The translations under genes and the position numbers were made by a program. From Candidatus Omnitrophota bacterium (GTDB lineage: Bacteria; Omnitrophota; Gorgyraeia; Gygaellales; Profunditerraquicolaceae), in contig JALOQJ010000004.1 of assembly GCA_025453445.1 (NCBI GenBank), positions 1 to 51,479 of the forward strand: 51,479 nucleotides of DNA, in the 5' to 3' direction. A model generated the notes under the pieces. That model saw only the letters and a program-made list of their open reading frames with translations, did not search any database and was not told the DNA's origin. Within the stretch, counting starts at the first letter, position 1. Every line of letters starts with the position of its first letter. Below, piece by piece: positions 513 through 46,276 of this stretch.

Positions 513-695
513 ATGGCGAAAGTAACAGTTGATGTTGCTACATGTGTAGGCTGCGGGTTGTGTGAACAAGCTTGCCCTGAGGTATTTCAGGTGCAAGGCG
601 ACGGGATTGCCCATGTAAAGGCGCAGGTATGCGCTTTGCATAATTTGCAGGAAGTGGCAGAGCAATGCCCGGTGAATGCGATTAAAGTAAGCTAA
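513..695 (+). CDS. Small 4Fe-4S ferredoxin
   Basis: 60 aa with the cluster motif CVGCGLCEQACP plus a distal C..CP. It starts 2 nt after the upstream stop, so it is probably translationally coupled. Confidence 0.75.
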   Translation: MAKVTVDVATCVGCGLCEQACPEVFQVQGDGIAHVKAQVCALHNLQEVAEQCPVNAIKVS

Positions 696-716
696 GAAAT
701 AGGGTCAAAAATAAAA

Positions 717-765
717 GGGGACGGTTATCTTTTTTTAAAAAAGAGAACCGTCCCCTAGTTTTTTT
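717..765. terminator. Bidirectional intrinsic terminator between convergent genes
   Basis: GGGGACGGTT (717-726) pairs with AACCGTCCCC (746-755), and an inner CTTTT/AAAAG extension lengthens the stem. An A-run lies upstream and a T-run at 759-765. It sits between the ferredoxin stop and the stop of the minus-strand giant gene. Confidence 0.6.
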
Positions 766-3700
766 ATTGGCTGCACTTGGAGCAGAAATCGGAATTGGGG
801 ATCTGCAGCCATGAATTAATCCCCGAGGCACTTAGGCCAAAGGTGCTGCCGGAAGCAGAATTTTCTTTGCCGAAATTAATTTCATAGCCGTATGTGCTGC
901 TAGGGTTATAATAGCTGGAGTAATAGGGCACATAACCTTTGGCAAAATAACCATATTGCGCATAGTTAGTGTATTGCTCCCACCAGTTCTCGTCGGGTTT
1001 CCTGATGCAACGGCCGTCAGAATAGCAAATTTGATAAGGGTAGCCGTACTGTACGTCATAATAACTTTTGACAAAGGTTCCATTTTCATCATAGATATGT
1101 TTATAATAGGCAAGCGGGATTGGAAGGCGTTTTTCTTCTGCTAATTGTATGAAAGAGCCGACAATGGTTCTTGTCTTAGGGGCTCCGTCAGCGCCTATCC
1201 AACGTTCTAAAGTATAGCCTTGGGGTTCATAAGGTGAGACCATTGCAGTATTATAAATTACATCGTAATAAACCCTGTTAGGTTGGGTAGTTTCTGTTGC
1301 TGAATCATATTTGCCTTCACCGGCGTTTAAAAGTACTGCCTGAGCATTCCCGGCGCCGGGGTTAGTAGGATTAAAGTATGTATTAATGAGATTTGCGGTC
1401 CATGTGCCCCAAGGAAGCGTATCAATGTTAATGCCATAGTCGTTGCAATATTTTACCAGTTTGCCATCTGTGTCATAAGCGAGTGCTGTTTCTTTAGTGA
1501 CGTTATTCAAATAATTATTTAGGAAATTTGAGTTTTTTAGAGAACTGGCGTAGTTATAAGAAGAAAAGCTCTCCCAGTAATTATAAGAGCTGATACCAAA
1601 AAGGCTGCTTATCTCGCTAATATACGGCTGAAAATAATCCGAGACTGTATAAATTGCCCGGTTTGTGCTGATCAAAGCCGCGGGTTTCCAGGTGTATTCG
1701 GAACTTGCACCGCCGTGTGCTTCTTTGTAGGCACTATAAGCAGCTGTTTCGCCGTCGCGCTGATGGTCAAGATTAAAGCTTCCTGCCACATAGATATTAT
1801 GCGGAGTAACTACTGTTAAGCCGTTTTCCGGCAGGATGCCGGCATTTTTTATAAAAACTGAAAAATCATATGCAATATCGTTAGAATTAGCACTTTCTAT
1901 ATAAATTACTCCGTTAAAAGGCTGGTTGTTTTGCGTTAAATATTGCCTTAATTGCGCTACGTCGATTTCCATAATTTTAGTTTTACCGGCGTTTGAAGTT
2001 GAAAAACCAGTAGAGTATTCCTGCGTAACTTTCGCCGGATGAAGGATATTATAAAATTGGCTGAAGTTGACTACTTGCCCTTCTTCTAAATCTCCGGCAG
2101 TAGTATTCCATTCATATTGCTGTGGAGGGGGGTTTTGCGCGTATAATGCTGTATATGCATCCCAATAGGCATCGAGAAGGTCAAAGAAATCAGACATAGG
2201 AATTGTGCCGAGAAGATCAAAAATTGGATCATCTTGATCACCAAAAGTAAAACTAATGGTATATTCTCCCAGTAAGGTAACGGTGTGCACAGTATCTTCC
2301 CAATTTTGATATGCCGTAGTATACCCATTAGATATATAAAGGCCTCCGTCCTGCGCTTTATTCTTATAGGAGTCGTTATCTAAACCGATTGCAGTCATGT
2401 AGCTGGCGCCGTTGGAGCTATCCTTGATAACATTATTTAATGAGGTTGTTGTGGTTTCTTCTGTATCAGTTTTTTTAATAGTCGCTGTTTTGCTGTTCAG
2501 CCAGCTCAGCCAGTCTGTGGATTGTTCTTTAGTATTCAGGAAAGGCACATCAATATAATCGCCGGCTGAGCGGTCATCGCCGTAGGTTAAATCAGTCCAC
2601 CATTCGCTGTTGATATAGGATGGGTTTGTGCCCTGCCATGTTTCCCAGAATTTCCTCGCCAAGGCTCCGGTAGTATCGGTATCGGAGCTAGTATAGCCGT
2701 TATTAGTTTTCCATGTTTCCCAATTAAAAGTGGAGGGGCTGCTGCTAAAAGTAGCATAATCAGTGCTGTTTAAGAAGTTACCTGAGCCTTTTTTATAGGC
2801 CAGCCAAGCAAGGGCAGGATTATCAATTTTAAAAGCAATCGGTACTTCGCTGCTGGATTTTGTCCCGTCATATTTGTCCCAGCTCCAAGTTGTACTCAGT
2901 TCAACAGGCAGTGGAACACCGTCAACTGTGGCGCAGTAAGTTGTAGCGAGATAATTGGAATTAAAATGATATCTGGTATTATAACCTATAGTAGACGATA
3001 GAGAATAATCGTAAGGAGGGGTGTCGTTTTTAGGCAGGGACGCTATGCCGTCAATAGTAGTATTATTGCTATCATATGAATAGGGGGAACTAAATTTCCA
3101 GTTATAGAGTGAATAGTATCCTCTATGCCCGCTGTCAGCAGTGCTTAGTTCAACAATATTTTTAAAAATTGTGCTCGTTGATCCGCCGGCAAAAATAATC
3201 ATGCCGTTGACATGAATTTTTCCGTAACCCGCGCCATCATAAGTGCCGCCGGAAAAAGTATGGTCGCTGGGGAAGAAGTAGAAGTAATTAAACATTGAAT
3301 TTTTGTTTACTCTTAATTCTAATGTGCAGGCAGCAGTTGCCTTGGGGTCTGTACCTTGGGAATGTATTACGATGATGCCGGTAGCAACGCCGGTATCCTT
3401 ATTTAGTTCCGGGTAAACAACCACTTTAAAATAATGCGGGTTTAGCGTTTCATCCATATAATATGATCCGTCTGTATTGAATTTGCCTTCGTAACCGCTG
3501 CCAATGAGGCTGGAAGTTACGGTGTTTTTTATTAAGCTTGTAGTACCCGACCAAGTGTGTGTGTTCCAGTCAAAATTATGCTGGTTTAATTCTGCATAGG
3601 CATAATGAATGCCTTCCTCGGCATTGTAAAAAGCCTGTGTTAAACCTTTCTCCCTCTGGGAAAGCACATGTTCAGAGGCATAGCGCAGGAAGATAGCACT

Positions 3701-3781
3701 GCCTAAGACGCTTAAAAAAAGCAGCACGCCAAGGGCAATTATCAGGGCGGCACCGTTATTATTCTTTTTTATTTTGTCCAT
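764..3781 (-). CDS. Giant PilX/GspK-like pilus-tip protein, paralog 1 (1005 aa)
   Basis: The N-terminus NNNGAALIIALGVLLFLSVLGSAIF is a PilX_N/GspK-type hydrophobic helix with no G|F cleavage motif and no E5. The remaining ~960 aa are rich in Tyr/Asn/Trp/Ser/Thr. By eye it is ~50-55% identical to the ORFs at 4873-7755 and 7758-10745. It follows two prepilin-type genes with a 1-nt gap. Confidence 0.55.
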   Translation of the reverse strand: MDKIKKNNNGAALIIALGVLLFLSVLGSAIFLRYASEHVLSQREKGLTQAFYNAEEGIHYAYAELNQHNFDWNTHTWSGTTSLIKNTVTSSLIGSGYEGKFNTDGSYYMDETLNPHYFKVVVYPELNKDTGVATGIIVIHSQGTDPKATAACTLELRVNKNSMFNYFYFFPSDHTFSGGTYDGAGYGKIHVNGMIIFAGGSTSTIFKNIVELSTADSGHRGYYSLYNWKFSSPYSYDSNNTTIDGIASLPKNDTPPYDYSLSSTIGYNTRYHFNSNYLATTYCATVDGVPLPVELSTTWSWDKYDGTKSSSEVPIAFKIDNPALAWLAYKKGSGNFLNSTDYATFSSSPSTFNWETWKTNNGYTSSDTDTTGALARKFWETWQGTNPSYINSEWWTDLTYGDDRSAGDYIDVPFLNTKEQSTDWLSWLNSKTATIKKTDTEETTTTSLNNVIKDSSNGASYMTAIGLDNDSYKNKAQDGGLYISNGYTTAYQNWEDTVHTVTLLGEYTISFTFGDQDDPIFDLLGTIPMSDFFDLLDAYWDAYTALYAQNPPPQQYEWNTTAGDLEEGQVVNFSQFYNILHPAKVTQEYSTGFSTSNAGKTKIMEIDVAQLRQYLTQNNQPFNGVIYIESANSNDIAYDFSVFIKNAGILPENGLTVVTPHNIYVAGSFNLDHQRDGETAAYSAYKEAHGGASSEYTWKPAALISTNRAIYTVSDYFQPYISEISSLFGISSYNYWESFSSYNYASSLKNSNFLNNYLNNVTKETALAYDTDGKLVKYCNDYGINIDTLPWGTWTANLINTYFNPTNPGAGNAQAVLLNAGEGKYDSATETTQPNRVYYDVIYNTAMVSPYEPQGYTLERWIGADGAPKTRTIVGSFIQLAEEKRLPIPLAYYKHIYDENGTFVKSYYDVQYGYPYQICYSDGRCIRKPDENWWEQYTNYAQYGYFAKGYVPYYSSYYNPSSTYGYEINFGKENSASGSTFGLSASGINSWLQIPNSDFCSKCSQ

Positions 3782-3782
3782 A

Positions 3783-4400
3783 TTAATTTAAGTTCCTCAG
3801 CCAAACCCGCGATTTTAATGATGTAGTTACATTTTTCGTATTTGCGGCAGTTAAAGCAATTTGCACGGATGTCGGGCTGTAAGTATTATTAGGTAAACCA
3901 ATAAATTCCACGGATTCTATATTATTTGCCAATACCATACTGCCGGAAGAAACTTCGTTTTTGTTGGAATCAAGGAGTATTCTTTTTAACTGGCCAGTAT
4001 CTTTCTCTGGAGCTTTTACAACTTTGTAACAAATCCAATAATTTTCCATGGAGTCACCGCCCCAGATTTTAGAGCCTGCGCTGTCCAGTTTTATCTGCTG
4101 GCTAGTATATAGGGGTACCTGAAAGCGGATTACGCTGCCTGTGCCAGTGGAAATAGCCGAGCCGGAATCATCTAATATTTGCAGATGGCCGGAAGAGCTG
4201 CTGAAACGGAGTTCCTGCGACATTGCCTGCATTGCCCTGCGGCTGTCCTGCTGGATTTGAATTTTTGCTTCCGAAACCCGCCAGCTGGATAAGCCTGCTA
4301 TCATTGTTGTCATAATTGCCCCGCAGACAAGCGAAAAAATAGCCGCGGTAATTAAGACTTCTGCTAATGTAAAAGCTTTTTCAGGGTGCGGTGAATTCAT
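3783..4400 (-). CDS. PilW/GspJ-like minor (pseudo)pilin
   Basis: Prepilin N-terminal methylation motif KAFTLAEVLITAAIFSL (E5 present), followed by QQDSRRAMQAMSQELRFS, typical of the PilW/GspJ family. 205 aa. Confidence 0.7.
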   Translation of the reverse strand: MNSPHPEKAFTLAEVLITAAIFSLVCGAIMTTMIAGLSSWRVSEAKIQIQQDSRRAMQAMSQELRFSSSSGHLQILDDSGSAISTGTGSVIRFQVPLYTSQQIKLDSAGSKIWGGDSMENYWICYKVVKAPEKDTGQLKRILLDSNKNEVSSGSMVLANNIESVEFIGLPNNTYSPTSVQIALTAANTKNVTTSLKSRVWLRNLN

Positions 4401-4404
4401 ATTA

Positions 4405-4851
4405 TTACCCCATATTCATAATCGTGGTTTGCAAGGATACCGGCGAAGCAGTTTTACTGCCTATTGTTTTGCCGTCAACTTCTGTCCACCAGACCAAAAC
4501 TTTTACCCTGTACATTGTTATTGGCTGAGTCATTGCAGCCTGCACATAAGAAATGCCTTTAAAATTCGGCAGCACAGTTGTGTTATCTGCGGCATAAATA
4601 TCAAATTCTGAATTATTATATTGGGTTAACTGATCAAAATCGATTTTTAAGGTTTCATCGCTGGGGTTGGTGCGCGCTTTAATTTTCTCCAGCCTTTCCA
4701 GCGCTGCATTGACGGCAACGCTAAAATTGCGCGTTGATTCCAGGCTCTTAAGATATTGGGCGTTAAACGATAGGATTCCGGTAAAAGCCGTTACCAGAAT
4801 AGCCGCGGCAAGTAGGATTTCTACTAAAGTGAGCCCTTTATTTCTTGGCAT
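4405..4851 (-). CDS. PilV/GspI-like minor (pseudo)pilin
   Basis: Prepilin motif NKGLTLVEILLAAAIL (E5 present). 148 aa, first gene of the distal module. Confidence 0.7.
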   Translation of the reverse strand: MPRNKGLTLVEILLAAAILVTAFTGILSFNAQYLKSLESTRNFSVAVNAALERLEKIKARTNPSDETLKIDFDQLTQYNNSEFDIYAADNTTVLPNFKGISYVQAAMTQPITMYRVKVLVWWTEVDGKTIGSKTASPVSLQTTIMNMG

Positions 4852-4872
4852 TTTTATCCGTTCCTTTCATTA

Positions 4873-7755
4873 CTAATATTCAGGATAAAAATTATTGTTA
4901 GGTATTTCAAACCAGGAGCCGACTGCTGCGGCAATCGGCCCGCTGGTTGAGCCTTCAGATGAGCTCTTAGCAAAATTAGGTTCGTAATTATAGTAACTCT
5001 TGCCAACATAAGAGCCGGAATATTGAGGAATATATCCGTGGCTATTATAACCATAATGGTATTTGCTGTTATAGTCATATCCGGGGCCTATTTGATATAC
5101 ATATAGGCCGGCTTGATTTTTTATACTGTAGGCGAAAGGCACTGAAGCCCGGTATTTATCTTCTAATTGTATCAAGGAACCTGTAATCTGGCGTTTTTTA
5201 GTAACACCGTCTACGCCTATCCAACGCTCTAAAGTATATCCTTCCGGTTCATAAGGGCTGACCATAGCAGTATTATAAATTACATCTTTAAGCACTCTAT
5301 TTGGCTGAGTAGCTTCGGTTGCTAAGTCATATTTGCCTTCTCCAGCATCTCGAAGTGCTTCTTGCGCTTTTCCGGCATCTGGATAAAGCGTAGTATTTAG
5401 GTATTGGTTAATATTATCTACCGTCCAAGTACCCGGGATATTCCCAAGTTCAGGATATTTAGCAAAAAAGTCTTTTACTGCCTGTGGAGCATTACTGCCT
5501 CCATAACTATTAAGATAAGAGTTGACAAAAACGCTGTCTTTTAAAGAATAAGGATAGTTTCCAGAGCTACCTAATCTCCAGTAATTATAGGAAGAAATAT
5601 CCGCAAGAGAACTTATAGCCTGATCTTTCTGAAAATTATCTGAAACCGTATAAATCATTCTTTGCGAACTGATTAAGGCAGCAGGGCGCCATTTGTAATC
5701 GGAGTTACTTCCACCGTGGTTCTCTTGATAATAATCATAGGCTTCACTTTCTGCTGCTGTTTTGCCTTCTTTATCGCGTTCATAATCAAGGTTAAAACTA
5801 CCCTGTACAATAATATTATGCGGGGTAACTAAAGTCAGGCCGTTTTCCGGCAGAATACCGGCGTTTTTTACCCTGATGGATAAATCATCGTAATAATAAT
5901 GATAATCCTCCACATCGGTACTTTCTACATAAACTACACCATTAAATGCCTGTCCCTTATCCTGCAGGTAATCCCTTAATTTTGCTACGTCGATATCTAA
6001 AATCGTAGTCGGCTTAGCATTTTGCACTCGGGTAGTTTCATTTTGCGAATCATAGACTCCCGGCTGGCGCACCGGGTTATAAAATAAGGTAGAGCTTATT
6101 ATATCTTCGAGGCCTTCGGGGATTTGCCATTCATACATGGTAGGCTTGCTTGAGTAATAAAGAGTATAATATGCAGTATACCATTGACCTATGCATAGAT
6201 AGTAAAGTGGGTCAGACGAATGGGTGGCAACCCAATTAGAAAACATAGTAGTGAAATTCGCCATAGTGAATACAACTGTTTCTCCGGTAGCTAAGAGGAG
6301 CTCGTGCGGCTGATTGAGCCACGCCGAATATTCATCGCTATATCCTTTAAGAATGGCAATCCCGCCGTTTTCCGCCTGTTTTTTGTAATTGGTCTCTAAT
6401 TTTATCGGTACAAGGTATTGCCCGCCGTTTGAGCCGTCTTTGAGTACAGAAGAGAGAGATTTGGTTTCGGGTTCGTCGGCATCGTATTTAGTAATAGTAG
6501 CAGTTTTGCCTTCTATCCAGCTTTGCCATGCGCTTGTTTGTTCTTTGGTATTTAGGTAGCTTACGTTGACAGTTTCGCTTACAGGACGGTCATTGCCATA
6601 GGTTAAGTCTGACCACCATTCATCATTGATATAAGATGGAGTATTGCCCAGCCAAGAGTTCCAGAATTTTCTCGCTAATGCACCGGTTGTATCGCTCCCC
6701 GAAGCTGTATAACCATTATTAGTTTTCCAGGTATCCCAGTCAAAGGTAGAGGGGCTGGCAACAAAACTCTGATAATCATCTCCGCTCAGGATAGCTCCAT
6801 CGCCGTTTTTGGTAGTCAGCCAGCTTAAAGCATCATTAGAAACTTGAAAAGATACTGCTTGTTCATTATCTGCGCGGTCGCCGCTATATTTATCCCAGGA
6901 CCATTCTTGGCTTAAAGTAGAAGGAAGGCTGACCCCATCAACACTAGCAGCTGTGTTGGAGGTAGTGAATTTGCGTGCTAGGGAGTACATATCATAGCTG
7001 GCATTGCTGGGAGTATAATAATCATAAGGAGGTGCGCTACTTCGCGAGAGAGGAGCAATACCATCAACAGTTGAGCCATCATAGCCTTTTGGCGAGCTAT
7101 ATTGGAAATTATAAAGCTGGAAATATCCGTTATTTGCGGCATTAGCAGTGCTTAGTTCGATAATGTTTTTAAAGATGGGGTTATTCTGTAGGATAATCCT
7201 GCCATTGACATGAATTTTCCCGTATCCTGCGCCGTCATAAGTGGCGCCACTAAAAGTATGGTCATTAGGAAAGAAATAAAAATAATCAAAAAGGGAATTT
7301 TTACTGACCCTTAATTCTACGGTGCGGGTTACTTTAGCCTGCGGGTCAGTAGCGCGGGAGTGGATTACAGTAACGCCTGTGGGAATTTTGGTAGTTTTAT
7401 TTAATTCAAGGTAAGTAATTACCTGAAAATGATGCCCGCTGATAGAATACAGTCCGTCATTATTGAAGCTGCCTCCGAACTGGGAAGTAATTCCTGAGGT
7501 GGGTGTTAGTGTAGTACCATTCCAAGTGTGTGTTTGCCAGTTATAACCATTTTGGGCAAGTTCACCATAAGCATAATTAAGGCCTTCTTCAGCATTGTAG
7601 AAAGCCTGCATCAGGGCTCTTTCGCGGTTAGAGATATTTTTTTCCGCGCCATAACGGATAAAAGAAGCGCTGGTAATAATGCTTAAGAAAAGCAATATCC
7701 CCAAGGCAATCAATAAGGCGATACCGTGATTTTTCGAAAGAGTAGTTTTTTTCAT
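4873..7755 (-). CDS. Giant PilX/GspK-like pilus-tip protein, paralog 2 (960 aa)
   Basis: N-terminal HGIALLIALGILLFLSIITSASF helix. It aligns along its full length with paralog 3 and with paralog 1. Confidence 0.55.
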   Translation of the reverse strand: MKKTTLSKNHGIALLIALGILLFLSIITSASFIRYGAEKNISNRERALMQAFYNAEEGLNYAYGELAQNGYNWQTHTWNGTTLTPTSGITSQFGGSFNNDGLYSISGHHFQVITYLELNKTTKIPTGVTVIHSRATDPQAKVTRTVELRVSKNSLFDYFYFFPNDHTFSGATYDGAGYGKIHVNGRIILQNNPIFKNIIELSTANAANNGYFQLYNFQYSSPKGYDGSTVDGIAPLSRSSAPPYDYYTPSNASYDMYSLARKFTTSNTAASVDGVSLPSTLSQEWSWDKYSGDRADNEQAVSFQVSNDALSWLTTKNGDGAILSGDDYQSFVASPSTFDWDTWKTNNGYTASGSDTTGALARKFWNSWLGNTPSYINDEWWSDLTYGNDRPVSETVNVSYLNTKEQTSAWQSWIEGKTATITKYDADEPETKSLSSVLKDGSNGGQYLVPIKLETNYKKQAENGGIAILKGYSDEYSAWLNQPHELLLATGETVVFTMANFTTMFSNWVATHSSDPLYYLCIGQWYTAYYTLYYSSKPTMYEWQIPEGLEDIISSTLFYNPVRQPGVYDSQNETTRVQNAKPTTILDIDVAKLRDYLQDKGQAFNGVVYVESTDVEDYHYYYDDLSIRVKNAGILPENGLTLVTPHNIIVQGSFNLDYERDKEGKTAAESEAYDYYQENHGGSNSDYKWRPAALISSQRMIYTVSDNFQKDQAISSLADISSYNYWRLGSSGNYPYSLKDSVFVNSYLNSYGGSNAPQAVKDFFAKYPELGNIPGTWTVDNINQYLNTTLYPDAGKAQEALRDAGEGKYDLATEATQPNRVLKDVIYNTAMVSPYEPEGYTLERWIGVDGVTKKRQITGSLIQLEDKYRASVPFAYSIKNQAGLYVYQIGPGYDYNSKYHYGYNSHGYIPQYSGSYVGKSYYNYEPNFAKSSSEGSTSGPIAAAVGSWFEIPNNNFYPEY

Positions 7756-7757
7756 CG

Positions 7758-10745
7758 TTAATACTCAGGATAAAAATTATTGTTAGATATTTCAAACCAG
7801 GAGCCGACTGCTGCGGCAATCGGCCCGCTGGCTGAGTCTTCTTTGGCGAAATTAGGTTCATAATTATAAAAACTACTGCCAATATAGCCGGAATATTGAG
7901 GAATATATCCGTGGCTATTATAGCCATAATGGTAACTGCTGTTATAGTCATAACCAGGACCTATCTGATAAACATATTGGCCAGCTTGATTTTTTATATA
8001 ATAGGCGAAAGGCACTGAAGCCCGGTATTTATCTTCTAATTGTATCAAGGAACCTGTAATCTGGCGTTTTTTAGCAACACCGTCTGCGCCTATCCACCGT
8101 TCTAAGATATACCCCTCTGGGTCATAAGGGCTGACCATGGCAGTATTATAAATTATATCTTTAAGCACTCTATTCGGCTGGGTTGCTTCTGTAGTTGAGT
8201 CATATTGCCCTTCGCCTATATTTAAAAGCACGCTCTGTGCGTCTCCCGCGCCCAGATTCTTTTTATCTAAAAGGTTAGTGATATCGGATACGCTCCAAGT
8301 GCGGTTATAACTGAGCCCATGGGCATCGCAATAGTCGCGATACTTTCTGCTTGAATCAAATTTAGCCAGAGCTTCATCAGTAATATGAGTATTGAGGTAA
8401 TTGTCTATGAAATAACTGCTCTGTAAAGAATACGGGTAGTCGCTTTCATTAGTATTCCAGTAATTATAGGATGAAATATCCGCAAGAGAATTTATAGCCT
8501 GATCTTTCTGAAAATTATCTGAAACCGTATAAATCATTCTTTGCGAACTGATTAAGGCAGCAGGGCGCCATTTGTAATCGGAGTTATTGCTTTGTTCCTG
8601 ATGTTGCGATTGATAATAATCATAAGCTTCGCTTTCTGCTGCTGTTTTGTTTTCTTTATCACGTTCATAATCAAGGTTAAAACTCCCCTGCACAATAATA
8701 TTATGCGGAGTAACTAAAGTCAGGCCGTTTTCCGGCAGGATGCCGCCGTTTTGTACCCGCACCGAGAAATCGTTATCAGTATCACTGGCATCAGTGCTTT
8801 CTACATAAATCACGCCGTTAAATGCCTGTTCGCTATCCTGAAGGTAATCCCTTAATTTTGCCACGTCGATATCTAATACTACAGTCGGATCAGCATTTTG
8901 TACTCGGGTAGCTTCATTCTGCGAATCGTAGACTCCCGGCTGGCGCACAGGGTTATAAAATGTGGTGGCAGTGACAATTTTGTTTTCGTTTAATTCTTTG
9001 GGGATATCCCATTTATAAGTGGAGATCTGTTGTGCCTGAAGTTCCTGATAAATAGAACTAATGAAAAGCCAAAATACATTCAAGAATTCTCCGCATATCG
9101 TGGAAGGCTGGGTAGGGGGGGGAGTGGGGCCGATAACCAGAATCAGGAGAGATGGGTCAGGGTAAGATGAGCTGGTGGGCGCGAATCCCCTTCGCCCCCC
9201 ACAATCATGCTGGGTTAACCAAGCAGATTGTACTTCGCTGTAGTTGTTCATAGTAAAAGTGATGGTTTCATCATGGAAGATCAATGTACGCGGCTGATTA
9301 AGCCAGGCTGTATAGGCGGCATTATAGTTTTTGGTAATAGCGATCCCGCCGTTTTCCGCCTGTTTTTTGTAATTGGTTTCTAATTTTATCGGCACAAGGT
9401 ATTGCCCGCCGTTTGAGCCATCCTTAATGATTGAGGAAAGCGATTTTGTTTCGCTTACGCCGGTATCAAATTTAGTAATAGATGCAGTTTTACCTTCCAG
9501 CCAGCTTTGCCATGCGCTTGTTTGTTCTTTGGTATTGAGATAATTTACGCTGATAGTCTCGCTTGCAGCACGGTCATTGCCATAGGTTAAATCCGACCAC
9601 CATTCATCGTTAATATAAGAAGGAGTATCTCCTAGCCAGCCGTGCCAAAACTTCTTAGCTAATTCGCCTGTAGTAGTAGTGCCCGCATACTCAGGATGGC
9701 TAGTCCACCAAGTATTCCAAAAGGCATCAAGATCCGCAGAAGCCTTAAAAGTCTCATATTCAGTTGTAGAAAGTATTGGGCCAAGAGAAGAAGTGGGGTT
9801 ATTATATTTAGAAACAAGCCAGCCCAAGGCATCATTAGAAACTTGGAAGGAAATTGCTTGTTCATCGCTTGCCTGGTCGCCGGCGTATTTGTCCCAAGAC
9901 CATTCCAGATCAAGCGTAGAAGGAATGGTTATTGTGTCAATTTTGGCAGCAGCGCTAGAACTGGTAAATTTTTTTGCCTTAGAATAAAAATCGCTACCGA
10001 TAGAATAATCATAAGGAGGCGAACTGGAACGGGAAAGAGATGCTATGCCGTCAATGATAGAGCCATCATAATTTTTTGGCGCGCCATACTGGGAATTGTA
10101 AAGTATAAAATACCCGTTATTCTGGGCATTGGCTGAACTTAACTCGATGATATTTTTAAAGGTTGGGTTTCCGGAAAGAATAATTTTTCCATTAACATGG
10201 ATTTTGCCATATCCCGCACCGTCATAAGTGCCGCCGCTAAAAGTATGGTCATTAGGAAAGAAATAAAAATAATCAAAAAGGGAATTTTTACTGACTCTCA
10301 ATTCTACGGTGCGGGTTACTTTTCCCTGCGGGTCAGTAGCGCGGGAGTGGATTACAATAACACCCGTGGGGATTTTAGTAGTTTTATTTAATTCAAGGTA
10401 AGTAATGACCTGAAAATGATGCCCGCTGATAGAATACAGTCCGTCATTATTGAAGCTGCCTCCGAATTGGGAAGTAATTCCTGAAGTGGGTTTCAGGGTA
10501 TTGTTGTCCCATGTATGCGTCTGCCAGTTATAGTCATTGTAGGCAAGTTCACCATAAGCATAATTAAGGCCTTCTTCAGCATTGTAGAAAGCCTGCATCA
10601 GGGCTCTTTCGCGGTTGGAGATATTCTTCTCTGCGCCATAACGGATAAAAGAAGCGCTGGTAATAATGCTTAAGAAAAGCAATATCCCCAAGGCAATCAA
10701 TAAGGCGATACCGTGATTATTTTGAAATGTAGTATTTTTCATCAC
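7758..10745 (-). CDS. Giant PilX/GspK-like pilus-tip protein, paralog 3 (995 aa, carries a GC-rich in-frame insertion)
   Basis: It has the same N-terminal helix as paralog 2, and the first ~60 aa are nearly identical. An insertion of about 40 aa (CGGRRGFAPTSSSYPDPSLLILVIGPTPPPTQPSTICGEFLNVFWLF) is absent from paralogs 1 and 2. Confidence 0.55.
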   Translation of the reverse strand: MMKNTTFQNNHGIALLIALGILLFLSIITSASFIRYGAEKNISNRERALMQAFYNAEEGLNYAYGELAYNDYNWQTHTWDNNTLKPTSGITSQFGGSFNNDGLYSISGHHFQVITYLELNKTTKIPTGVIVIHSRATDPQGKVTRTVELRVSKNSLFDYFYFFPNDHTFSGGTYDGAGYGKIHVNGKIILSGNPTFKNIIELSSANAQNNGYFILYNSQYGAPKNYDGSIIDGIASLSRSSSPPYDYSIGSDFYSKAKKFTSSSAAAKIDTITIPSTLDLEWSWDKYAGDQASDEQAISFQVSNDALGWLVSKYNNPTSSLGPILSTTEYETFKASADLDAFWNTWWTSHPEYAGTTTTGELAKKFWHGWLGDTPSYINDEWWSDLTYGNDRAASETISVNYLNTKEQTSAWQSWLEGKTASITKFDTGVSETKSLSSIIKDGSNGGQYLVPIKLETNYKKQAENGGIAITKNYNAAYTAWLNQPRTLIFHDETITFTMNNYSEVQSAWLTQHDCGGRRGFAPTSSSYPDPSLLILVIGPTPPPTQPSTICGEFLNVFWLFISSIYQELQAQQISTYKWDIPKELNENKIVTATTFYNPVRQPGVYDSQNEATRVQNADPTVVLDIDVAKLRDYLQDSEQAFNGVIYVESTDASDTDNDFSVRVQNGGILPENGLTLVTPHNIIVQGSFNLDYERDKENKTAAESEAYDYYQSQHQEQSNNSDYKWRPAALISSQRMIYTVSDNFQKDQAINSLADISSYNYWNTNESDYPYSLQSSYFIDNYLNTHITDEALAKFDSSRKYRDYCDAHGLSYNRTWSVSDITNLLDKKNLGAGDAQSVLLNIGEGQYDSTTEATQPNRVLKDIIYNTAMVSPYDPEGYILERWIGADGVAKKRQITGSLIQLEDKYRASVPFAYYIKNQAGQYVYQIGPGYDYNSSYHYGYNSHGYIPQYSGYIGSSFYNYEPNFAKEDSASGPIAAAVGSWFEISNNNFYPEY

Positions 10746-10751
10746 TTCACC

Positions 10752-11360
10752 CTAATTTCTTAGCCAGATCCGGGACTTTAAAAGCATGTCCGTTTCAGTA
10801 CCTTTAATGATATTTCTCTTTGTTAAAATAATCTCTAAAGAGCTGGGCGTATAAGTATTGTTAGGTAAGCCGTTAAATTCTATAGCTGCAACGCGATTAG
10901 CTAAAACTGCGCTGGAGATTTTTGTAATTTTATCACCTGTTAGGACCAGTCTTTTTAACTGGCCGCTAGTTTCACCTTGAGGTATAACAAGCTGGTAGCT
11001 AACCCAATAGCCTTGTGTCCCTTCTGCGCCCCAAACCAGTTGGCCTCCGGTATCAACTTGCACCTGTTGTTGAGAATATACCGGCATCTGGAAAATAATC
11101 CTTGTCCCGGAATAAGCCTGAATTCCGGAATCATTCAAGACCTGCAGATGATACGCGCTGCTTAAGCGCAATTCTTTGGACATCATTTCCATTGCCCTTC
11201 TTGTTTCCTGCTGGGTCTGGGTTTTTGCTTCTCCTATCTGCCATGAAGATACACCGGTCATAAAAACACTAAAAATAGCTACAGATATTACAGCCAGGAT
11301 AGACGTTGTAATTAATACTTCTGCGAGAGTAAAGCCATTTTTAAAATTCCGGCAGTTCAT
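10752..11360 (-). CDS. PilW/GspJ-like minor (pseudo)pilin
   Basis: Prepilin motif NGFTLAEVLITTSILAV followed by QQETRRAMEMMSKELRLS. It is a paralog of 3783-4400. Confidence 0.7.
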   Translation of the reverse strand: MNCRNFKNGFTLAEVLITTSILAVISVAIFSVFMTGVSSWQIGEAKTQTQQETRRAMEMMSKELRLSSAYHLQVLNDSGIQAYSGTRIIFQMPVYSQQQVQVDTGGQLVWGAEGTQGYWVSYQLVIPQGETSGQLKRLVLTGDKITKISSAVLANRVAAIEFNGLPNNTYTPSSLEIILTKRNIIKGTETDMLLKSRIWLRN

Positions 11361-11361
11361 T

Positions 11362-11874
11362 TTATTGCTCCATATTAATCAAATCAGCCTGAATAGATGC
11401 CGGGGAATCAAGTTCGGAATTACTGGTTTTATCTTCTCCGGAGTCAAGCGCGCCGTTTAAATTCGTATCTTCTCCGATTACCTGATTCTGACTGTTTTTC
11501 CAGCTAACCACTACTTTGACCCTGAACATCTTTAGCGGAAGGCCTGTGATTTCTTTTACGTAAGAGACGCCTTTAAAGTTTGTCAGCGCTGTAGTTTTAT
11601 TATTGCCGTAAACATCAAAAGTCAGGCCGTTATAATATTGTGCTAAATTATTAAAGTCGATTTTTGTGGTTTCTGTTGCATCCTGAGGATTAACCCGTGA
11701 CTTGATTTTTTCAAAACGTTCCTGAGCAGCATTCATTGCTAAGCTGAGATTGCGGGTTCCTTGTAGCTCTTTGAGGTACTGAGAATTGAACATTAGGATC
11801 CCGGTCAGGGCAGTGCTGAGTATAGCCGCAGAAATCAGGATTTCTACTAAGGTTAAGCCTTTATTTTTCAGCAT
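11362..11874 (-). CDS. PilV/GspI-like minor (pseudo)pilin with a C-terminal acidic Asp/Asn/Gly loop
   Basis: Prepilin motif NKGLTLVEILISAAIL. It is a paralog of 4405-4851 with an extra GEDTNLNGALDSGEDKTSNSELD segment. An RBS (ggagg on the minus strand) lies ~9 nt before the ATG. Confidence 0.7.
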   Translation of the reverse strand: MLKNKGLTLVEILISAAILSTALTGILMFNSQYLKELQGTRNLSLAMNAAQERFEKIKSRVNPQDATETTKIDFNNLAQYYNGLTFDVYGNNKTTALTNFKGVSYVKEITGLPLKMFRVKVVVSWKNSQNQVIGEDTNLNGALDSGEDKTSNSELDSPASIQADLINMEQ

Positions 11875-11927: not shown

Positions 11928-13343
11928 CTAGAAGCGGCTTTGCGCCTGCTTTTTTAACTCCGCGACAAACTTCAGGAATTGCTCCTGTTTTGCCTGTTCA
12001 AGCAGCTTTTGGCTGAATTCGGCTTTTTCAGCCTCAAATTTTTTCTTATCAAATGATGATTTTGTTTTTACCTTAATAATATAAAAACCGGAGGGCATTT
12101 CGATAATCTCGCTGAATTCGCCTTCTTTAAGTTTTGAGGCAGCAGCCCAGAATTGATCTGAAGCGCCGATGTTTTCAATATAGCTGCTATATTTAAATTT
12201 ATCGGTTGCCCCGTATTTCAGGCTGAAAATTTTGGCGGTTTTTTCAAAATCAACTCCTTTGAGATTAGCTGCGCTGAATTCTTTAAGCGCCTTCAGGCAG
12301 TTCTCCATTTTTTCTTTAGCAATGACTTGCGCCCTATCTTTGAGCAGGGCGTCTTTGGCCTTATCTTTAATGGCATTAAAATCAGGTATGTAGGGTTCTT
12401 TTCTTTCCTTGAGGCGCAGGATATAATAAGATTTATCAAGGGCAAGAGGAGGAAGGTACTGCTCGGGTTTTGCCTCGATAATCAGCTTAAGTACTTCCGG
12501 CGACCAGCCGAGGCCGGGCACAGGCCCTGCTTCGCTAAAAATGCCGGTTTCTTTTAAGGTGAGATTATTTTCTTTGGCAACTTTTTCAAAAGGTTCTTTC
12601 CTGAGCAGCCGAGAGTAGATTTTTTTGACCTGATCCTGGAGAGCGATTTCTACATATTCGACATTAAAAGATAACGGTTGCTTGAATTTTAAGGAATTTT
12701 TGCTGAAGTAACTGTTTAATTCTTTATCGTCGATTATGCTGTCTTTGGTGAAATCAGCGGCAAGGCCGGCAATATAATAGATACTGGTTTCTTCATTAGC
12801 TTTTTTATATTCCTCGAGGATATCCGCATCTTTTAAACTGACGCCGGAAGTAACCTGCTGGAAAAGCTTGGCGAGCATCAGGTTTTGACGCGTCTGCTCT
12901 TCGAATACGCGGGCCTGAACGCGGAAAACATAAGTGAGCATCTGAGCATAAATACGCTTGTCAAATGTGCCCATTGATTGGAAAAAGGGGTAACTTTCGA
13001 TTGAAGTAACTACTTCGTTATCACTCGTTTTAATTTTACGTTTTTGCGCTTCTTTCAGGATTACCAGCCTGTCCCATGCTTGTGCAGGTAAGTCGAGCGA
13101 TTTTTCAACTTCTGAAAATTTGTCTCCGAATTGGATCAGCGCGCGGTTTTTTACCGCATCCAGCGATTCCTGAAACTCTTGAATAGGAATCTTCTCACCG
13201 TTAATTTCCCCTGCAAATTTTGCCTCTTGTTTATTACTGACCATACTGCCGGAACCCCAGAGCACGAATGCCGGCAGGATCAAAATAGCCAGAACAATCC
13301 AAATTTTTTTTGCGGTTTCTTTCTTACGCAGTACTTTAAGCAT
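11928..13343 (-). CDS. PpiD/SurA-like periplasmic chaperone / peptidyl-prolyl isomerase
   Basis: N-terminal membrane anchor (KIWIVLAILILPAFVLWG), a SurA_N-like region, and a C-terminal parvulin-like segment (SGFYIIKVK). Confidence 0.65.
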   Translation of the reverse strand: MLKVLRKKETAKKIWIVLAILILPAFVLWGSGSMVSNKQEAKFAGEINGEKIPIQEFQESLDAVKNRALIQFGDKFSEVEKSLDLPAQAWDRLVILKEAQKRKIKTSDNEVVTSIESYPFFQSMGTFDKRIYAQMLTYVFRVQARVFEEQTRQNLMLAKLFQQVTSGVSLKDADILEEYKKANEETSIYYIAGLAADFTKDSIIDDKELNSYFSKNSLKFKQPLSFNVEYVEIALQDQVKKIYSRLLRKEPFEKVAKENNLTLKETGIFSEAGPVPGLGWSPEVLKLIIEAKPEQYLPPLALDKSYYILRLKERKEPYIPDFNAIKDKAKDALLKDRAQVIAKEKMENCLKALKEFSAANLKGVDFEKTAKIFSLKYGATDKFKYSSYIENIGASDQFWAAASKLKEGEFSEIIEMPSGFYIIKVKTKSSFDKKKFEAEKAEFSQKLLEQAKQEQFLKFVAELKKQAQSRF

Positions 13344-25275: not shown

Positions 25276-25935
25276 ATGTACCGTAAAGGATTTACCCTTA
25301 TGGAGGTGCTTGTAACAGTAATCGTAATCGGCATCCTTTCAACTGTAGGTTATGTGAATTATGAGAATACCGTAGAAGATTCTAAAGCGAGGATAAGCCG
25401 GGCGAATATGGAGGCCCTAAATACTGCTCTGAATATCTATATCATGGAGAATGATCAGGTGCCCGGAGATTTAACCCGGATACCTCCTAAATACATCAGG
25501 GATGCCTATGCACAGGTTATAAAAGCTGAAGGCACCTGGAAAATGAAGTTAGCTTATTTTATTGTCGGGCTAAAGGAAGGGAATTTAGCTTATGCTTCCA
25601 GCGCCAAGGATTTTATGCTGAATAAATTAGCCAAAGGTGACATGCAATTAATTACCGATCCGGCAGATTCGACCCCCCCGGGTTCTTGTGCTACCTGTGT
25701 TTCTTATGGGTTGAACACATTAATAATAAATTTGAAAGCTGTGGATTATAATAAGCTCGATGATGTAGTTACCATTGGAGAATGTGATGTGCCGGTATTC
25801 TCGAATACATCCGAGCTTGCCGTTACGCGGCATACGAAACGTAACTTTATGTTACAAGCGAATAAATACGGGCAGGCCGTGACCAGGAAAGCCAGAATAG
25901 AGAAATTTAAACACGCAACCGGCTTGGATAATTAA
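25276..25935 (+). CDS. Type IV pilin / T2SS pseudopilin-like protein
   Basis: Prepilin motif RKGFTLMEVLVTVIVIGILS (G|F, E5). 219 aa. Confidence 0.7.
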   Translation: MYRKGFTLMEVLVTVIVIGILSTVGYVNYENTVEDSKARISRANMEALNTALNIYIMENDQVPGDLTRIPPKYIRDAYAQVIKAEGTWKMKLAYFIVGLKEGNLAYASSAKDFMLNKLAKGDMQLITDPADSTPPGSCATCVSYGLNTLIINLKAVDYNKLDDVVTIGECDVPVFSNTSELAVTRHTKRNFMLQANKYGQAVTRKARIEKFKHATGLDN

Positions 25936-25945
25936 TTTTATCACC

Positions 25946-28252
25946 TTGAAGAAAGCTCGTGATTTTTGGCAAATTTTATGCATCGGTTTCGGCAGTTTTT
26001 TAATTTCTTCTTTTTTTGTACGTTTTGCTTCGCCTGAATTCTTCGGCGTTAATGACCTTGCCAGTCGTTACGCCTATTCACTTTCCAAAAAAGCTGCTAA
26101 GCCGTTGAAAATTATCGGTATTGAAGTTGATACCGATTCTTTAACGCAGTTATCGCAGCGCTATCCTCTAAAAAGATCAGTCTATGCCCGGCTGCTAAAA
26201 GTTTTACAGCCGGAAGGCATAAATACCCTTGGGTTTGATTTTATCTTCGCCGGATCTTCGGAAAATCAGGAAGATGATTTGGCGTTAGAAGAAGCCTTAC
26301 GTGATGCATCATACAGGGTAGTTTTAGCTTATCTGATTAATCCTTCAACCGGTACTCCCGCCTTGCCTTTGCCTCAGTTGGAAAAATTAAGTTATGCCAC
26401 AGGGATGCTGAATACTCCTGAAGATAAAGATGGCTTAATCCGGCGCTTGCGCGGGTATGTAGTTTTGGATGAGAAGAGATATTATTCTTTTAGCGTTATG
26501 CTCAGTGCGGCCATACTGAACCAACAGCCGGAAAAAGTAATTTCCCGCCTCAGTTTACTCAAAAATAAAACATACTATATCAATTACCTGATTAAGCCAA
26601 CGGATATCATAAGAGTCAGCCTGTTTGAGGCGATATATAATCTCCCGGCTTTGAAAGAAAAATACGGTAGGGATTTTTTAAAAAACTCATTTGTTTTAGT
26701 TTATCCTCAGCCGGAAATTTCCCATGATATCTATCCTACTCCGTTAGGCAGGATACCCGGAGGCCTGCTGCATATCAACGGCGTCAATACAATTGTTTCC
26801 AACCGCCTGCTAAGGCAGGTAGATAATTTATCAATTTTCTTTCTTCTGGCAACCTTTCTTGTTTTGTACTACATCCTTAAATACGCAGGTTTCCTGAACG
26901 GCTGCCTTTTTATCGCCGGGCATATGATTATAGTTTTTTGGTCAGGCGTATTATTACTTTTGGCAGGGATGAGATTTGACTCAGGCAGGGTGATTGTTTT
27001 TGCGCTAATATTCTTTACCTTAGGTAGTTTGTATAAATACCTGGATTTTCTTGCCCAACTGTTTAAGATCAGGGTGAAAGCCACTATGGACCCTTTAAGG
27101 AATATTTTTACCTTAAGGTATTTCTACGGCCGGCTTGAGCTGGAAACAAAGAAAATTTATTTTTACCGCGAGCCATTCGTGGTTTTACTTTATTTTAAGC
27201 CTTTGGCTGCTGCAGTAGAAAATATGGATTTTCAGAAATTGAAAGAATTATGGCTTGCAATAAATAAAAGCATCAATTTAAAAGGAAGTTTATGGGCGGG
27301 TTATTCTGCGGAAGAAGTTGCAGGGTGTGTAATTACCTCTCCTAAAAAAATCGACAAGCTCTGTCGTATTTTAACGGATAATTTAAATGCTGAATTTTCC
27401 CGGCGTGGGATTAAGCTAGAAGTAAAATTGGCCTGTCTGAAATTCAGGAAAGGTTACCCTGTTCGAGAATTACTGTTTGTGCTTTCCGCAGAATTAAAAA
27501 AAGCTCAAGTAAATGATCTTATATTTTTTAAAGAGCATGAGTTGGATTATCTCCTTCATACATCTTATCCTGGGATAAAAGAGAGTCAGGAGGCATTGGG
27601 CGGCATCAGCGAAGATATTGAAGAGAAAAATCGTCAGCTTTTACTGCTTATCGATAATTTGAACAAAGAACACGCCCGCACTAAGGAAGCATTCTTGGAA
27701 ACTATTGCTTCTCTGGCCAAGGCTTTGGAGGCGCGCGATCCATATACTGAGGGCCATTCGGAAAGGGTGGCACGTTATGCTGTAATGCTGGCGGATGAAT
27801 TAGGCTGGTCGCCGGAATTAAAAGAAAAGCTAGCCAAAGCAGCGCTTTTGCATGACTTGGGGAAAATCGGCATCCCGGATAATATATTGCATAAAAAAGA
27901 GAAGCTCACGGAGGAAGAATATAATTCTATAAAAAAGCACGGGTTGATTTCCGCAAAGATCCTCGAGCCGCTAAAAGACGTCAGGGATATCCTACCGTGG
28001 ATTGCCGGCCATCATGAAAAATGGGACGGTTCAGGCTATCCCCAGGGCCTTGCAGGCAGTAATATTTCTCTGGGTGCCCAGATTATTGCTTTAGCAGATT
28101 CATTTGATGCGATTACTACCGGAAGGGATTATAAAAAAGCCTTTTCTATCGAGGATGCGATTAGAGAGATAACTAATGGCCGCGGCAGCCAGTTTAATCC
28201 GCAGCTAGCCGATATATTTATAAAAATAATTTGCAAATTACCGCACCTGTGA
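25946..28252 (+). CDS. CHASE2 sensor - transmembrane - HD-GYP c-di-GMP phosphodiesterase
   Basis: The N-terminal region is CHASE2-like (IIGIEVDTDSL...YPLKRSVYARLL..L...GINTLGFDFIF). Several TM helices follow. The C-terminal motifs are HSERVA...HDLGKIGIP...HHEKWDGSGYPQGL (HD-GYP). TTG start. Confidence 0.8.
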   Translation: MKKARDFWQILCIGFGSFLISSFFVRFASPEFFGVNDLASRYAYSLSKKAAKPLKIIGIEVDTDSLTQLSQRYPLKRSVYARLLKVLQPEGINTLGFDFIFAGSSENQEDDLALEEALRDASYRVVLAYLINPSTGTPALPLPQLEKLSYATGMLNTPEDKDGLIRRLRGYVVLDEKRYYSFSVMLSAAILNQQPEKVISRLSLLKNKTYYINYLIKPTDIIRVSLFEAIYNLPALKEKYGRDFLKNSFVLVYPQPEISHDIYPTPLGRIPGGLLHINGVNTIVSNRLLRQVDNLSIFFLLATFLVLYYILKYAGFLNGCLFIAGHMIIVFWSGVLLLLAGMRFDSGRVIVFALIFFTLGSLYKYLDFLAQLFKIRVKATMDPLRNIFTLRYFYGRLELETKKIYFYREPFVVLLYFKPLAAAVENMDFQKLKELWLAINKSINLKGSLWAGYSAEEVAGCVITSPKKIDKLCRILTDNLNAEFSRRGIKLEVKLACLKFRKGYPVRELLFVLSAELKKAQVNDLIFFKEHELDYLLHTSYPGIKESQEALGGISEDIEEKNRQLLLLIDNLNKEHARTKEAFLETIASLAKALEARDPYTEGHSERVARYAVMLADELGWSPELKEKLAKAALLHDLGKIGIPDNILHKKEKLTEEEYNSIKKHGLISAKILEPLKDVRDILPWIAGHHEKWDGSGYPQGLAGSNISLGAQIIALADSFDAITTGRDYKKAFSIEDAIREITNGRGSQFNPQLADIFIKIICKLPHL

Positions 28253-46128: not shown

Positions 46129-46190
46129 GATCTCTCGCCCCGATATTCATCGGGGCTCGAGATCCAAAAATTTACTTCGTAAATTTTTGG
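46129..46190 (+). terminator. Two consecutive strong hairpins between the GIY-YIG gene and tRNA-Ser(GGA)
   Basis: The first hairpin (46129-46164) is GATCTCtcGCCCCGAT-attc-ATCGGGGCtcGAGATC. The second (46164-46190) is CCAAAAATTTAC-ttc-GTAAATTTTTGG, a perfect 12-bp stem whose last GG is the first two nt of the tRNA. Confidence 0.5.
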
Positions 46191-46276
46191 AGAGGTGCCG
46201 GAGCGGTCGAACGGGCATGTCTGGAGAACATGTGAGCCGCAAGGCTCCCAGGGTTCGAATCCCTGCCTCTCCGCCA
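46189..46276 (+). tRNA. tRNA-Ser (anticodon GGA)
   Basis: The acceptor is GGAGAGG/CCTCTCC, the anticodon stem CATGT/ACATG with loop CTGGAGA. There is a long variable arm, the T arm is CAGGG-TTCGAAT-CCCTG, and CCA is encoded. Confidence 0.85.

Follow-up and report, generated by a model that had tools for sequence, protein, structure and literature searches.

The 51,479-nucleotide (nt) stretch of Candidatus Omnitrophota bacterium DNA analysed here (hereafter the window; contig JALOQJ010000004.1 of assembly GCA_025453445.1, positions 1 to 51,479) carries a minus-strand block of seven intact open reading frames (ORFs), in the order V1-W1-G1-G2-V2-W2-G3, in which two pairs of small pilin genes are interspersed with three genes for giant proteins of about 1000 amino acids (aa). 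The first pair encodes a GspI/PilV-like minor pilin, V1 (11874-11362; 170 aa), and a GspJ/PilW-like minor pilin, W1 (11360-10752; 202 aa), and is followed by two tandem paralogs that we place in a giant K/PilX class of pilins, namely G1 (10745-7758; 995 aa, with a GTG start codon whose next codon is ATG) and G2 (7755-4873; 960 aa), the latter having no V-W pair of its own. The second GspI/PilV-like and GspJ/PilW-like pair, V2 (4851-4405; 148 aa) and W2 (4400-3783; 205 aa), precedes the third giant K/PilX-class protein, G3 (3781-764; 1005 aa), which is the one used for the structure model below. These are the same ORFs, on the same strand, that an original prediction made from the letters of the DNA had described with gaps of 1-21 nt, and we measured gaps from V1 to G3 of 1, 6, 2, 21, 4, and 1 nt. 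V1 has a strong AGGAGG ribosome-binding site, and it is plausible that the seven genes form one operon. Because the ORFs are intact and have conserved homologs, and because the ratio of nonsynonymous to synonymous divergence (dN/dS) between G1 and G2 is ~0.27, a sign of purifying selection, we regard them as functional genes rather than chance ORFs or decaying copies; the intact frames and this ratio also ruled out pseudogenized duplicates.

The small and giant pilins of the block

We took as type IV pilins those proteins that combine a short basic leader, Gly (or Ala) at position -1, a hydrophobic alpha-1 helix, and Glu at +5, and by their sequences V1, W1, V2, and W2 are type IV pilins with a class III signal peptide. 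The prepilin strings quoted in the original prediction are present in all four together with Glu5 (with a slash after position -1, MLKNKG/LTLVEIL in V1, RNKG/LTLVEIL in V2, KNG/FTLAEVLIT in W1, and EKA/FTLAEVLIT in W2), so that its description of canonical motifs needs amending only for W2, which has Ala rather than Gly at -1. Matches to the Pfam N_methyl family scored 23.7 (V1), 21.8, 22.5, and 20.4 (V2) bits against a cut-off of 21.2, with V2 falling just below, and PDB profile matches of the small pilins span the pilin alpha-1 helix only. At the subfamily level, V1 and V2 scored 28.1 and 24.6 bits against GspI (TIGR01707, cut-off 44.35) and 16.7 and 14.4 bits against PilV (TIGR02523, cut-off 52.2), all below threshold, as was a weak ComGE match of V1; their assignment to GspI/PilV is thus based on size, gene order, and the best weak match. 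W1 and W2 scored 33.0 and 16.7 bits against GspJ (TIGR01711, cut-off 64.85), over the N-terminal 58 residues only. V orthologs could be aligned across 15 related loci (numbered with an L prefix and described further below), and the W alignment, spanning 17 loci, has an invariant E5, P93, W110-G111, and terminal R-N, with W1 ending in the family motif ...LRN.

The giants begin NNHG/IALLIALGILLFL (G1), NHG/IALLIALGILLFL (G2), and NNNG/AALIIALGVLLFL (G3), and at position +5 all three have Ile (NNHG/IALLI, NHG/IALLI, and NNNG/AALII). The original prediction of a hydrophobic helix lacking Glu5 therefore held, with the helix itself predicted and Glu5 also absent from the listed N-termini of the wider giant family, whereas its description of that helix as non-cleaved is probably wrong, since the family N-terminus, consisting of basic residues, Gly, and a hydrophobic stretch, has a Gly at -1 that is at least 90% conserved across 29 diverse members. 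GspK, which is a cleaved protein, likewise has Gly at -1. The N-terminus of the giants is pilin-like and not Sec-type. It is followed in the family by the motif QAFYxAExGIxYAY, and a second motif, PPGD...W.E(I/V)..(D/N)F, occupies the extreme C-terminus family-wide, regardless of protein length. Alignment of the N-domain profile of the giants with the W-pilin profile by hhalign gave a probability of 86.8% (E = 4e-6) over alpha-1, with the pilin Glu5 column being hydrophobic in the giants.

G1 is 75% identical to G2 and 49% identical to G3, and all three share a composition that sets them apart from the other genes of the window, confirming the Tyr-, Asn-, and Trp-rich body described previously: Tyr makes up 7.4-8.8% (versus 3.3%), Asn 7.3-8.1% (versus 4.4%), and Trp 2.3-2.5% (versus 0.6%), with Ser and Thr also enriched. 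Close homologs are few, with only six among 5.8 billion clustered proteins, the single named one being a 'hypothetical protein' of a Candidatus Omnitrophica metagenome-assembled genome (MAG), and two word-index homolog searches with alignments returned no new ones. An exhaustive profile search of 1.84 billion representatives revealed a wider family of 433 related clusters at E <= 1e-3 (78 at E <= 1e-30), mostly 700-1200 aa long, which, as far as the hits carry names, appears restricted to Omnitrophota.

Evaluating this family against curated domains supported the earlier statement that the body holds no known domain, as searches of Pfam, NCBIfam, PHROG, PDB, and BFVD gave no match. Direct Pfam, NCBIfam, and PHROG scans of the giants were empty, T2SSK had no match in G1-G3, and neither the full family nor its N-domain gave a meaningful match when searched as a sequence profile against PDB. 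Among 47 diverse family members searched with Pfam and NCBIfam, only Dockerin (in 3) and HpsA (in 1) appeared, both weakly, the latter (NF038301, E = 0.0016) being the only NCBIfam family touched; a PilY1/PilC domain was found neither in the giants nor in these 47 members. The sole recurrent Pfam family in the N-domains was PilX_N (PF14341), found in 7 of 29 at a best E of 0.0074, with the 25.5-bit cut-off not reached, and at E = 4 on G3. Profile searches of the giants thus delivered no PilX_N or GspK assignment and equally no match to a characterised non-pilus family.

Several features of the small pilins deserve description in their own right. Near the C-terminus of V1 (residues ~139-160, about 11395-11460) lies an acidic loop, GEDTNLNGALDSGED, of a form (GEDxNLNGxLDSGED) that also occurs in the V-type pilins of L001, L003, L005, L006, L015, and L028 and is missing from V2 and from several relatives with the gene order G-V-W; from its sequence, it looks like a calcium-binding motif. 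The Ala at -1 of W2 recurs in minor pilins of L007, L009, L017, and L019 (for example KKA/FTLxE), which suggests a prepilin peptidase that tolerates Ala at that position. At L029 (6792-7928), a W-type pilin that matches N_methyl and ends ...TFKN is split by a Hint/intein domain just upstream of a 740-aa member of the giant family, an intein in a pilin gene being unusual.

Predicted architecture of the giants and its counterparts in known systems

AlphaFold2 (AF2) modelling of G3 from a 79-sequence alignment gave a mean predicted local distance difference test score (pLDDT) of 88.5 and a predicted template modelling score of 0.86 (an earlier run from an 8-sequence alignment, with a pLDDT of 46, was unusable). 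In this model, a 59-residue alpha-1 helix (residues 9-67) leads into an antiparallel sheet with strands between residues 75 and 162, and block-mean pLDDT of this pilin module is about 78-97 after the first ten residues, such that the pilin-like N-terminal helix and sheet sought in the giants were both predicted. The module (residues 1-162; 3296-3781, minus strand) is supported by the AF2 secondary structure, the hhalign result, the conservation of Gly at -1, and the weak PilX_N matches. Behind it, the body is predicted to comprise ~820 residues of mixed alpha/beta structure, partly in short, regularly spaced, solenoid-like strands, after which poorly predicted, low-confidence linkers set off a long final strand (residues 984-994; blocks with mean pLDDT 82-93) that carries the conserved C-terminal sequence SWLQIPN..F (800-832, minus strand) and is a candidate for an in-cis 'C-beta' strand.

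Covariation, calculated as mutual information (MI) with average product correction over 127 related sequences, connected this final strand to the pilin sheet. Its strongest partner is residue 155 (pair 992-155, z = 7.9, the fourth strongest pair in the protein); this pair and 990-157 are consistent with a single antiparallel register against strand 151-162, and W991 covaries with residues 51 and 55 of alpha-1. Two further high-scoring pairs, 992-153 and 986-155, lie outside that register, and because relatedness inflates MI we take this evidence for strand pairing as supportive and not decisive. Foldseek searches of the G3 model against PDB and BFVD found no match at E <= 0.001.

This predicted topology has counterparts among tip pilins. 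K-type minor pilins (GspK, PilK, and PilX) always lack Glu5 and sit at the filament apex, and their sheet needs a terminal beta-strand before the I-J dimer docks, a strand that is supplied in trans by PilY1/PilC or in cis, as in GspK, ComGG, CpaL, and the K-type pilins of Thermus and of V. cholerae competence pili (PMC13533445). In ComZ and in cyanobacterial PilX/HpsA, a bulky domain lies between the penultimate and last strands and is suggested to act as plug and adhesin in place of PilY1 (PMC6561018; bioRxiv 10.64898/2026.02.12.705559). By the model, the giants are predicted to share the topology of a GspK/PilX-class tip pilin with an insertion, as in ComZ, cyanobacterial PilX/HpsA, and CpaL.

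Comparing the giants with each of these systems showed both likenesses and differences. Like GspK/XcpX and PilK/PilX, they are the largest subunit of an I-, J-, K-like gene order and have a Gly-preceded hydrophobic N-terminus without Glu5, but they are about three times larger than GspK (a comparison made in the original prediction) and larger still relative to PilX/PilK, and their insertion comes before the last strand, whereas the GspK alpha-domain lies in mid-sheet. Like ComZ of Thermus thermophilus (PDB 6QVI) and cyanobacterial PilX/HpsA, they have a predicted insertion between the penultimate and last strands, yet at ~820 aa theirs is the longer one and has a predicted mixed alpha/beta structure in place of a plain beta-solenoid, and neither the ComZ nor the HpsA similarity is significant. 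Caulobacter Tad CpaL also combines a pilin-like N-domain, a large middle, and a C-terminal strand with two small minor pilins, and in it the middle region is dispensable and the extreme C-terminal strand essential (PMC13533445); the giants differ in length (~1000 versus ~600 aa), the likeness is one of description, and most of their informative gene contexts are type IVa. As a ~1000-aa putative tip adhesin, each giant recalls PilY1/PilC with FimU-PilVWX, and the presence of several sets recalls the three minor-pilin clusters of Myxococcus xanthus, but PilY1 is a separate protein with a signal peptide and a beta-propeller that supplies its strand in trans, whereas here the adhesin and K-pilin would be one chain.

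A further comparison concerns the Verru_Chthon cassette (TIGR02596-TIGR02600), a repeated prepilin-type cassette with one large member in a phylum of the Planctomycetes-Verrucomicrobia-Chlamydiae (PVC) group. W1 and W2 touch its protein C at 23-30 bits against a cut-off of 256.5, over the N-terminal 58 residues only, and neither the giants nor their family members match its protein A. As these profile tests either fail or stay below threshold, the giants are not demonstrable members of GspK, PilX_N, PilY1, HpsA, or the Verru_Chthon cassette.

Related loci, the tandem array, and pilus machinery

Scanning one genome per species revealed 20 loci with the giant family, 13 of them labelled Omnitrophota and 7 from third-party bins labelled 'uncultured Planctomycetia' or 'Planctomycetales', among which is L005, a locus syntenic with the window. 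ORF maps showed a pilin of 130-180 aa, a pilin of 175-215 aa, and a giant in almost all loci with enough flank, and the V-W-giant triad was found at more than 20 Omnitrophota loci, in the order V-W-G or G-V-W, and multiplied in L008 (G-V-W-G) and L017 (V-W-G-G-V'-W'). L011 holds a giant-family member without adjacent pilin genes. It is common for one genome to hold multiple modules, as several MAGs supply two loci apiece.

These relatives also place the window's array in context. L001, L003, and L005 lie on large contigs with 65-78% nucleotide identity to the window and share its gene order (HisG, a PpiD/SurA-like peptidyl-prolyl isomerase (PPIase), pilin, pilin, giant, ferredoxin, and ferritin), and since each holds a single V-W-G module, we read the window as a lineage-specific expansion at a conserved chromosomal site. 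In the closest relative, L025, the ferredoxin/ferritin stretch is 87% identical to the window and two tandem G1/G2-type giants, which are the nearest relatives of G2, adjoin the ferredoxin gene, with the contig breaking inside the upstream copy. V2, W2, and G3 are 48-58% identical to V1, W1, and G1 (V2 57-58% to V1; W2 48% to W1), a distance comparable to that of orthologs in different lineages, and their nearest relatives are at L026 (W 60%, G 55%; P0001/L026). Module 2 is therefore either an ancient paralog or an acquisition from a different lineage of Omnitrophota, and on the same two grounds we rejected the possibility that module 1 had recently been duplicated to give module 2.

Divergence between G1 and G2 is uneven along their length. 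Synonymous divergence (dS) is low in the two ends, residues 1-181 and 892-995 (0.17-0.41), whereas most of the intervening sequence has values from about 0.5 up to saturation, a single stretch (705-766, 0.19) excepted; divergence peaks near residues 250-350, 495-595, and 790-840. Such a mosaic would be consistent with gene conversion, or with replacement of the middle, either of which would leave the pilin module and C-terminal region alike. Homogenised ends, the parts predicted to contact V, W, and the filament, are what one would expect if G1 and G2 have to bind one shared V1-W1 pair. G1 additionally has a private Pro-rich, Cys-containing insertion of ~35 residues (CGGRRGFAPTSSSYPDPS...PTPPPTQPSTIC; residues ~515-575, window 9100-9200), which falls within the patch of highest variability (local dN/dS 0.69).

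Connecting these modules to a machine relies on the relatives. L017 reads PilB (TIGR02538, E = 2e-171), GGDEF-AAA, MshEN, PilC, and V-W-G-G-V'-W', with PilM, a gene in the PilN position (no Pfam hit), PilO, a gene in the PilP position (weak T2SSB), and a secretin on the opposite strand; L023 agrees for PilC, PilM, and secretin, and L014 for PilC. At all three loci, the triad adjoins the platform gene pilC within a type IVa pilus cluster. As L017 and L005 lie on the same 281-kb contig, the genome with the window's closest syntenic ortholog also has a type IVa cluster and two more family members. L028 offers a Tad-like setting, in which a distant giant-family member (P0141) with V and W pilins of its own comes after genes for a SurA-like PPIase, RcpC, an RcpA-type secretin, and a fused TadZ-TadA protein. 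For the phylum as a whole, type IVa pilus genes are near-universal and Tad systems are common (PMC10066038).

The clusters of these relatives contain some unusual genes. Between pilB and pilC of L017 (1657-6290) lie genes for a 1338-aa GGDEF-AAA-HEAT protein and a stand-alone MshEN-domain protein, which by their domains suggest cyclic di-GMP control of the pilus in that relative. At L028, the RcpA-type secretin (2906-4483) bears a C-terminal TonB_C domain, and the neighbouring ATPase fuses a TadZ-like ParA/CbiA domain to a TadA-like T2SSE domain. Eight loci (L006, L008-L013, and L015) have a divergent OmpR-type response regulator and small histidine kinase upstream of the module, as judged from position and N-terminal similarity, with Pfam applied to L011 only; this pair is not present in the window. 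Adjacency of a two-component system to many giant-family loci resembles FimS-AlgR, which is linked to the minor pilins and PilY1 of P. aeruginosa (PMC5979040).

Beside the block itself, a gene for a membrane-anchored PpiD/SurA-like PPIase (11928-13343, minus strand; 471 aa; Pfam SurA_N_3, SurA_N_2, and Rotamase_2) lies 53 nt upstream of V1, with a promoter-like site at 13397-13370. It is a conserved neighbour, standing directly upstream of V-W-G in the window, L001, L003, and L005, and it may be co-transcribed with the module; a chaperone role for giant pilins is possible. The PPIase heading the Tad-like cluster of L028 (1181-2080) is a different SurA-like protein. At the other end, the bidirectional intrinsic terminator claimed at 717-765 was recovered as a hairpin, GGGGACGGTT...AACCGTCCCC, flanked on either side by A and T runs and with a folding energy of -27 kcal/mol (z = -5.9; none of 200 shuffles folds as well), which is common to the end of G3 and to a convergent ferredoxin gene (514-696, plus strand; 60 aa).

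The rest of the window is core chromosome, including BamA, LpxC-FabZ, DnaB, RtcB, SerRS, seven tRNAs, and sensor kinases. Flat GC, core flanks syntenic with other Omnitrophota, and the lack of PHROG hits spoke against a phage or mobile element as the origin of the locus, which we therefore rejected, and Rfam and tRNA scans had no match within the seven-gene locus. The pilin inventory of the original prediction was incomplete, as a fifth prepilin-type gene (25276-25935, plus strand; 219 aa; MYRKG/FTLMEVLVTVIVIGIL) sits between dnaB and a gene for a CHASE2-HD-GYP protein (25946-28252); its N-terminus is GspG/PilA-like (TIGR01710, E = 5e-10, below cut-off), and by sequence it could be a major pilin or pseudopilin of the same system. 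The 36-50 kb part of the window has unusually many tRNA genes, three of them tRNA-Ser, including a tRNA-Ser(GGA) found by ARAGORN at 46189-46276 (plus strand) that is absent from the Rfam gathering-threshold list (7 versus 6 tRNAs).

A probable tandemly expanded tip locus and its alternatives

We consider it likely that the block is a tandemly expanded minor-pilin locus, encoding the tip or priming complex of a type IV filament, which would most probably be a type IVa pilus. V, W, and G are read as I, J, and K subunits because the giants are predicted to share the topology of insertion-bearing K pilins, and the I-J-K or V-W-X gene order with a giant in the K slot, as first proposed, is upheld by the recurrence of the triad, its adjacency to pilC in relatives, and the AF2 topology, though not by profile membership. 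In this mechanism, V, W, and G would be processed by prepilin peptidase and assemble in the inner membrane into an initiation complex beneath which the major pilin polymerises, and G, lacking Glu5, would stay at the apex with its body displayed as plug and adhesin. The pilin fold of G (about residues 1-165) would be interrupted before its last strand by the body, after which the chain would return as the conserved C-terminal strand and complete the sheet. G1 and G2 would both pair with V1-W1, and G3 with V2-W2, so that a single machine, with its genes elsewhere in the genome, could be fitted with as many as three different tips. We infer complex formation, in line with the conserved co-location of V, W, and G, as well as tip location, an adhesin role, and the alternative use of the three giants.

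Alternative tips have precedent, as several minor-pilin sets serve one machine in Myxococcus (PMC7541494) and in Synechocystis (bioRxiv 10.64898/2026.02.12.705559), and the earlier suggestion that two and a half tip sets represent interchangeable, possibly host- or surface-specific, tips is plausible. Going further, the ~820-residue body could be a new fold for recognition of a host, prey, or surface, or for cell-wall attack, displayed at the pilus apex within the K-type pilin, with ends kept compatible with V and W by gene conversion and diversifying middles forming a swap-in system that sets the partner range of these nanobacteria, whose phylum is largely uncultured and putatively predatory or parasitic; we offer this only tentatively.

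Several observations weigh against assigning the block to a type IVa pilus tip. The giants score below every curated cut-off, those of GspK and PilX_N included, and, unlike in GspK/PilX systems, the modules contain no GspH/FimU-type (H-type) fourth minor pilin, give no T2SSK match, and match PilX_N below threshold only. The predicted pairing of the C-terminal strand with the pilin sheet draws on covariation of 127 sequences that phylogeny can inflate, and the top Foldseek match in PDB, ComZ (6QVI; E = 0.015, probability 0.13, TM-scores <= 0.15), is not significant. As originally noted, the window yielded no gene for a pilus ATPase, platform, or secretin, a result that covers ten of the larger ORFs outside the locus, and the sequence-based link to a machine runs through relatives that are only 22-45% identical. 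Nor do the relatives fix the machine serving the window's clade, given the Tad-like setting of L028 and the solitary giant of L011.

The Tad-like setting raises the alternative that the modules serve a Tad-type (type IVc) pilus, with V, W, and G as counterparts of CpaK, CpaJ, and CpaL. Beyond the position of the distant V-W-G of L028 directly after its Tad genes, this would accord with the SurA/PpiD-like PPIase that also precedes the window's module, with the frequency of Tad systems in Omnitrophota (PMC10066038), and with the make-up of CpaL, a tip protein of ~600 aa that is pilin-like and has an adhesin region in its middle and a C-terminal strand (PMC13533445). We nonetheless think it unlikely, as three loci put the triad within type IVa clusters, one of them on the contig of L005, and as the signal peptides of V and W are of the G/FTLxE kind seen in type IVa and type II secretion systems (T2SS), not the short Flp type. 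The triads could instead form the tip of a short periplasmic T2SS-like pseudopilus (endopilus) used for secretion, rather than that of a long adhesive pilus: GspI and GspJ are the NCBIfam families that V and W match best, if below threshold, a K-type subunit that supplies its own terminal strand is what GspK is (PMC13533445) and what covariation points to here, the pilin at 25276-25935 has a GspG-like N-terminus, and secretion as well as pilus genes flank giant-protein loci in Omnitrophota (bioRxiv 10.64898/2026.06.07.730766). That the machinery of the relatives consists of PilM, PilO, and secretin, with PilB the best ATPase model, and not of GspL, GspM, and GspC, makes this very unlikely, as do the missing GspH and a ~100-kDa body, rich in aromatic residues, Ser, and Thr and diversifying in patches, that resembles an exposed binding module more than a piston cap.

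It is more improbable again that the giants are not filament subunits at all but signal-anchored envelope or surface proteins, for example glycan-binding or -degrading ones, encoded beside minor pilin genes. A body without a match to any pilus family, a richness in Trp, Tyr, and Asn as in carbohydrate-binding proteins, and the L011 member without pilin neighbours would all suit such proteins, but they would leave unexplained the conserved Gly-hydrophobic N-terminus with a pilin-like sheet behind it, the terminal strand that covaries with that sheet, and the tight co-occurrence of the giant with V and W at more than 20 loci in both gene orders; moreover, no CAZy-type or enzyme domain was found in the 47 family members.

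If the block is indeed the tip locus of a type IVa pilus, parts of this picture are already known, namely the architecture of insertion-bearing K pilins and the use of several tip sets per machine. New are an Omnitrophota-restricted family in the K position, a body with no detectable sequence or fold relatives, and a tandem array with homogenised ends. The giants define a hitherto unannotated family of 433 representative clusters, without a Pfam, NCBIfam, or PDB relative, for which the confident structural model of G3 provides a basis for further work. As the likely apical subunit of Omnitrophota type IVa pili, this family would be one more independent case of a pattern now emerging from ComZ, cyanobacterial PilX/HpsA, and CpaL, in which organisms lacking PilY1 make the tip adhesin a part of the K-type pilin. 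These ultrasmall, uncultured bacteria are believed to attach to other cells or to prey on them, and the G1/G2/G3 array, with its conserved ends and divergent middles, may offer a concrete handle on their partner specificity.

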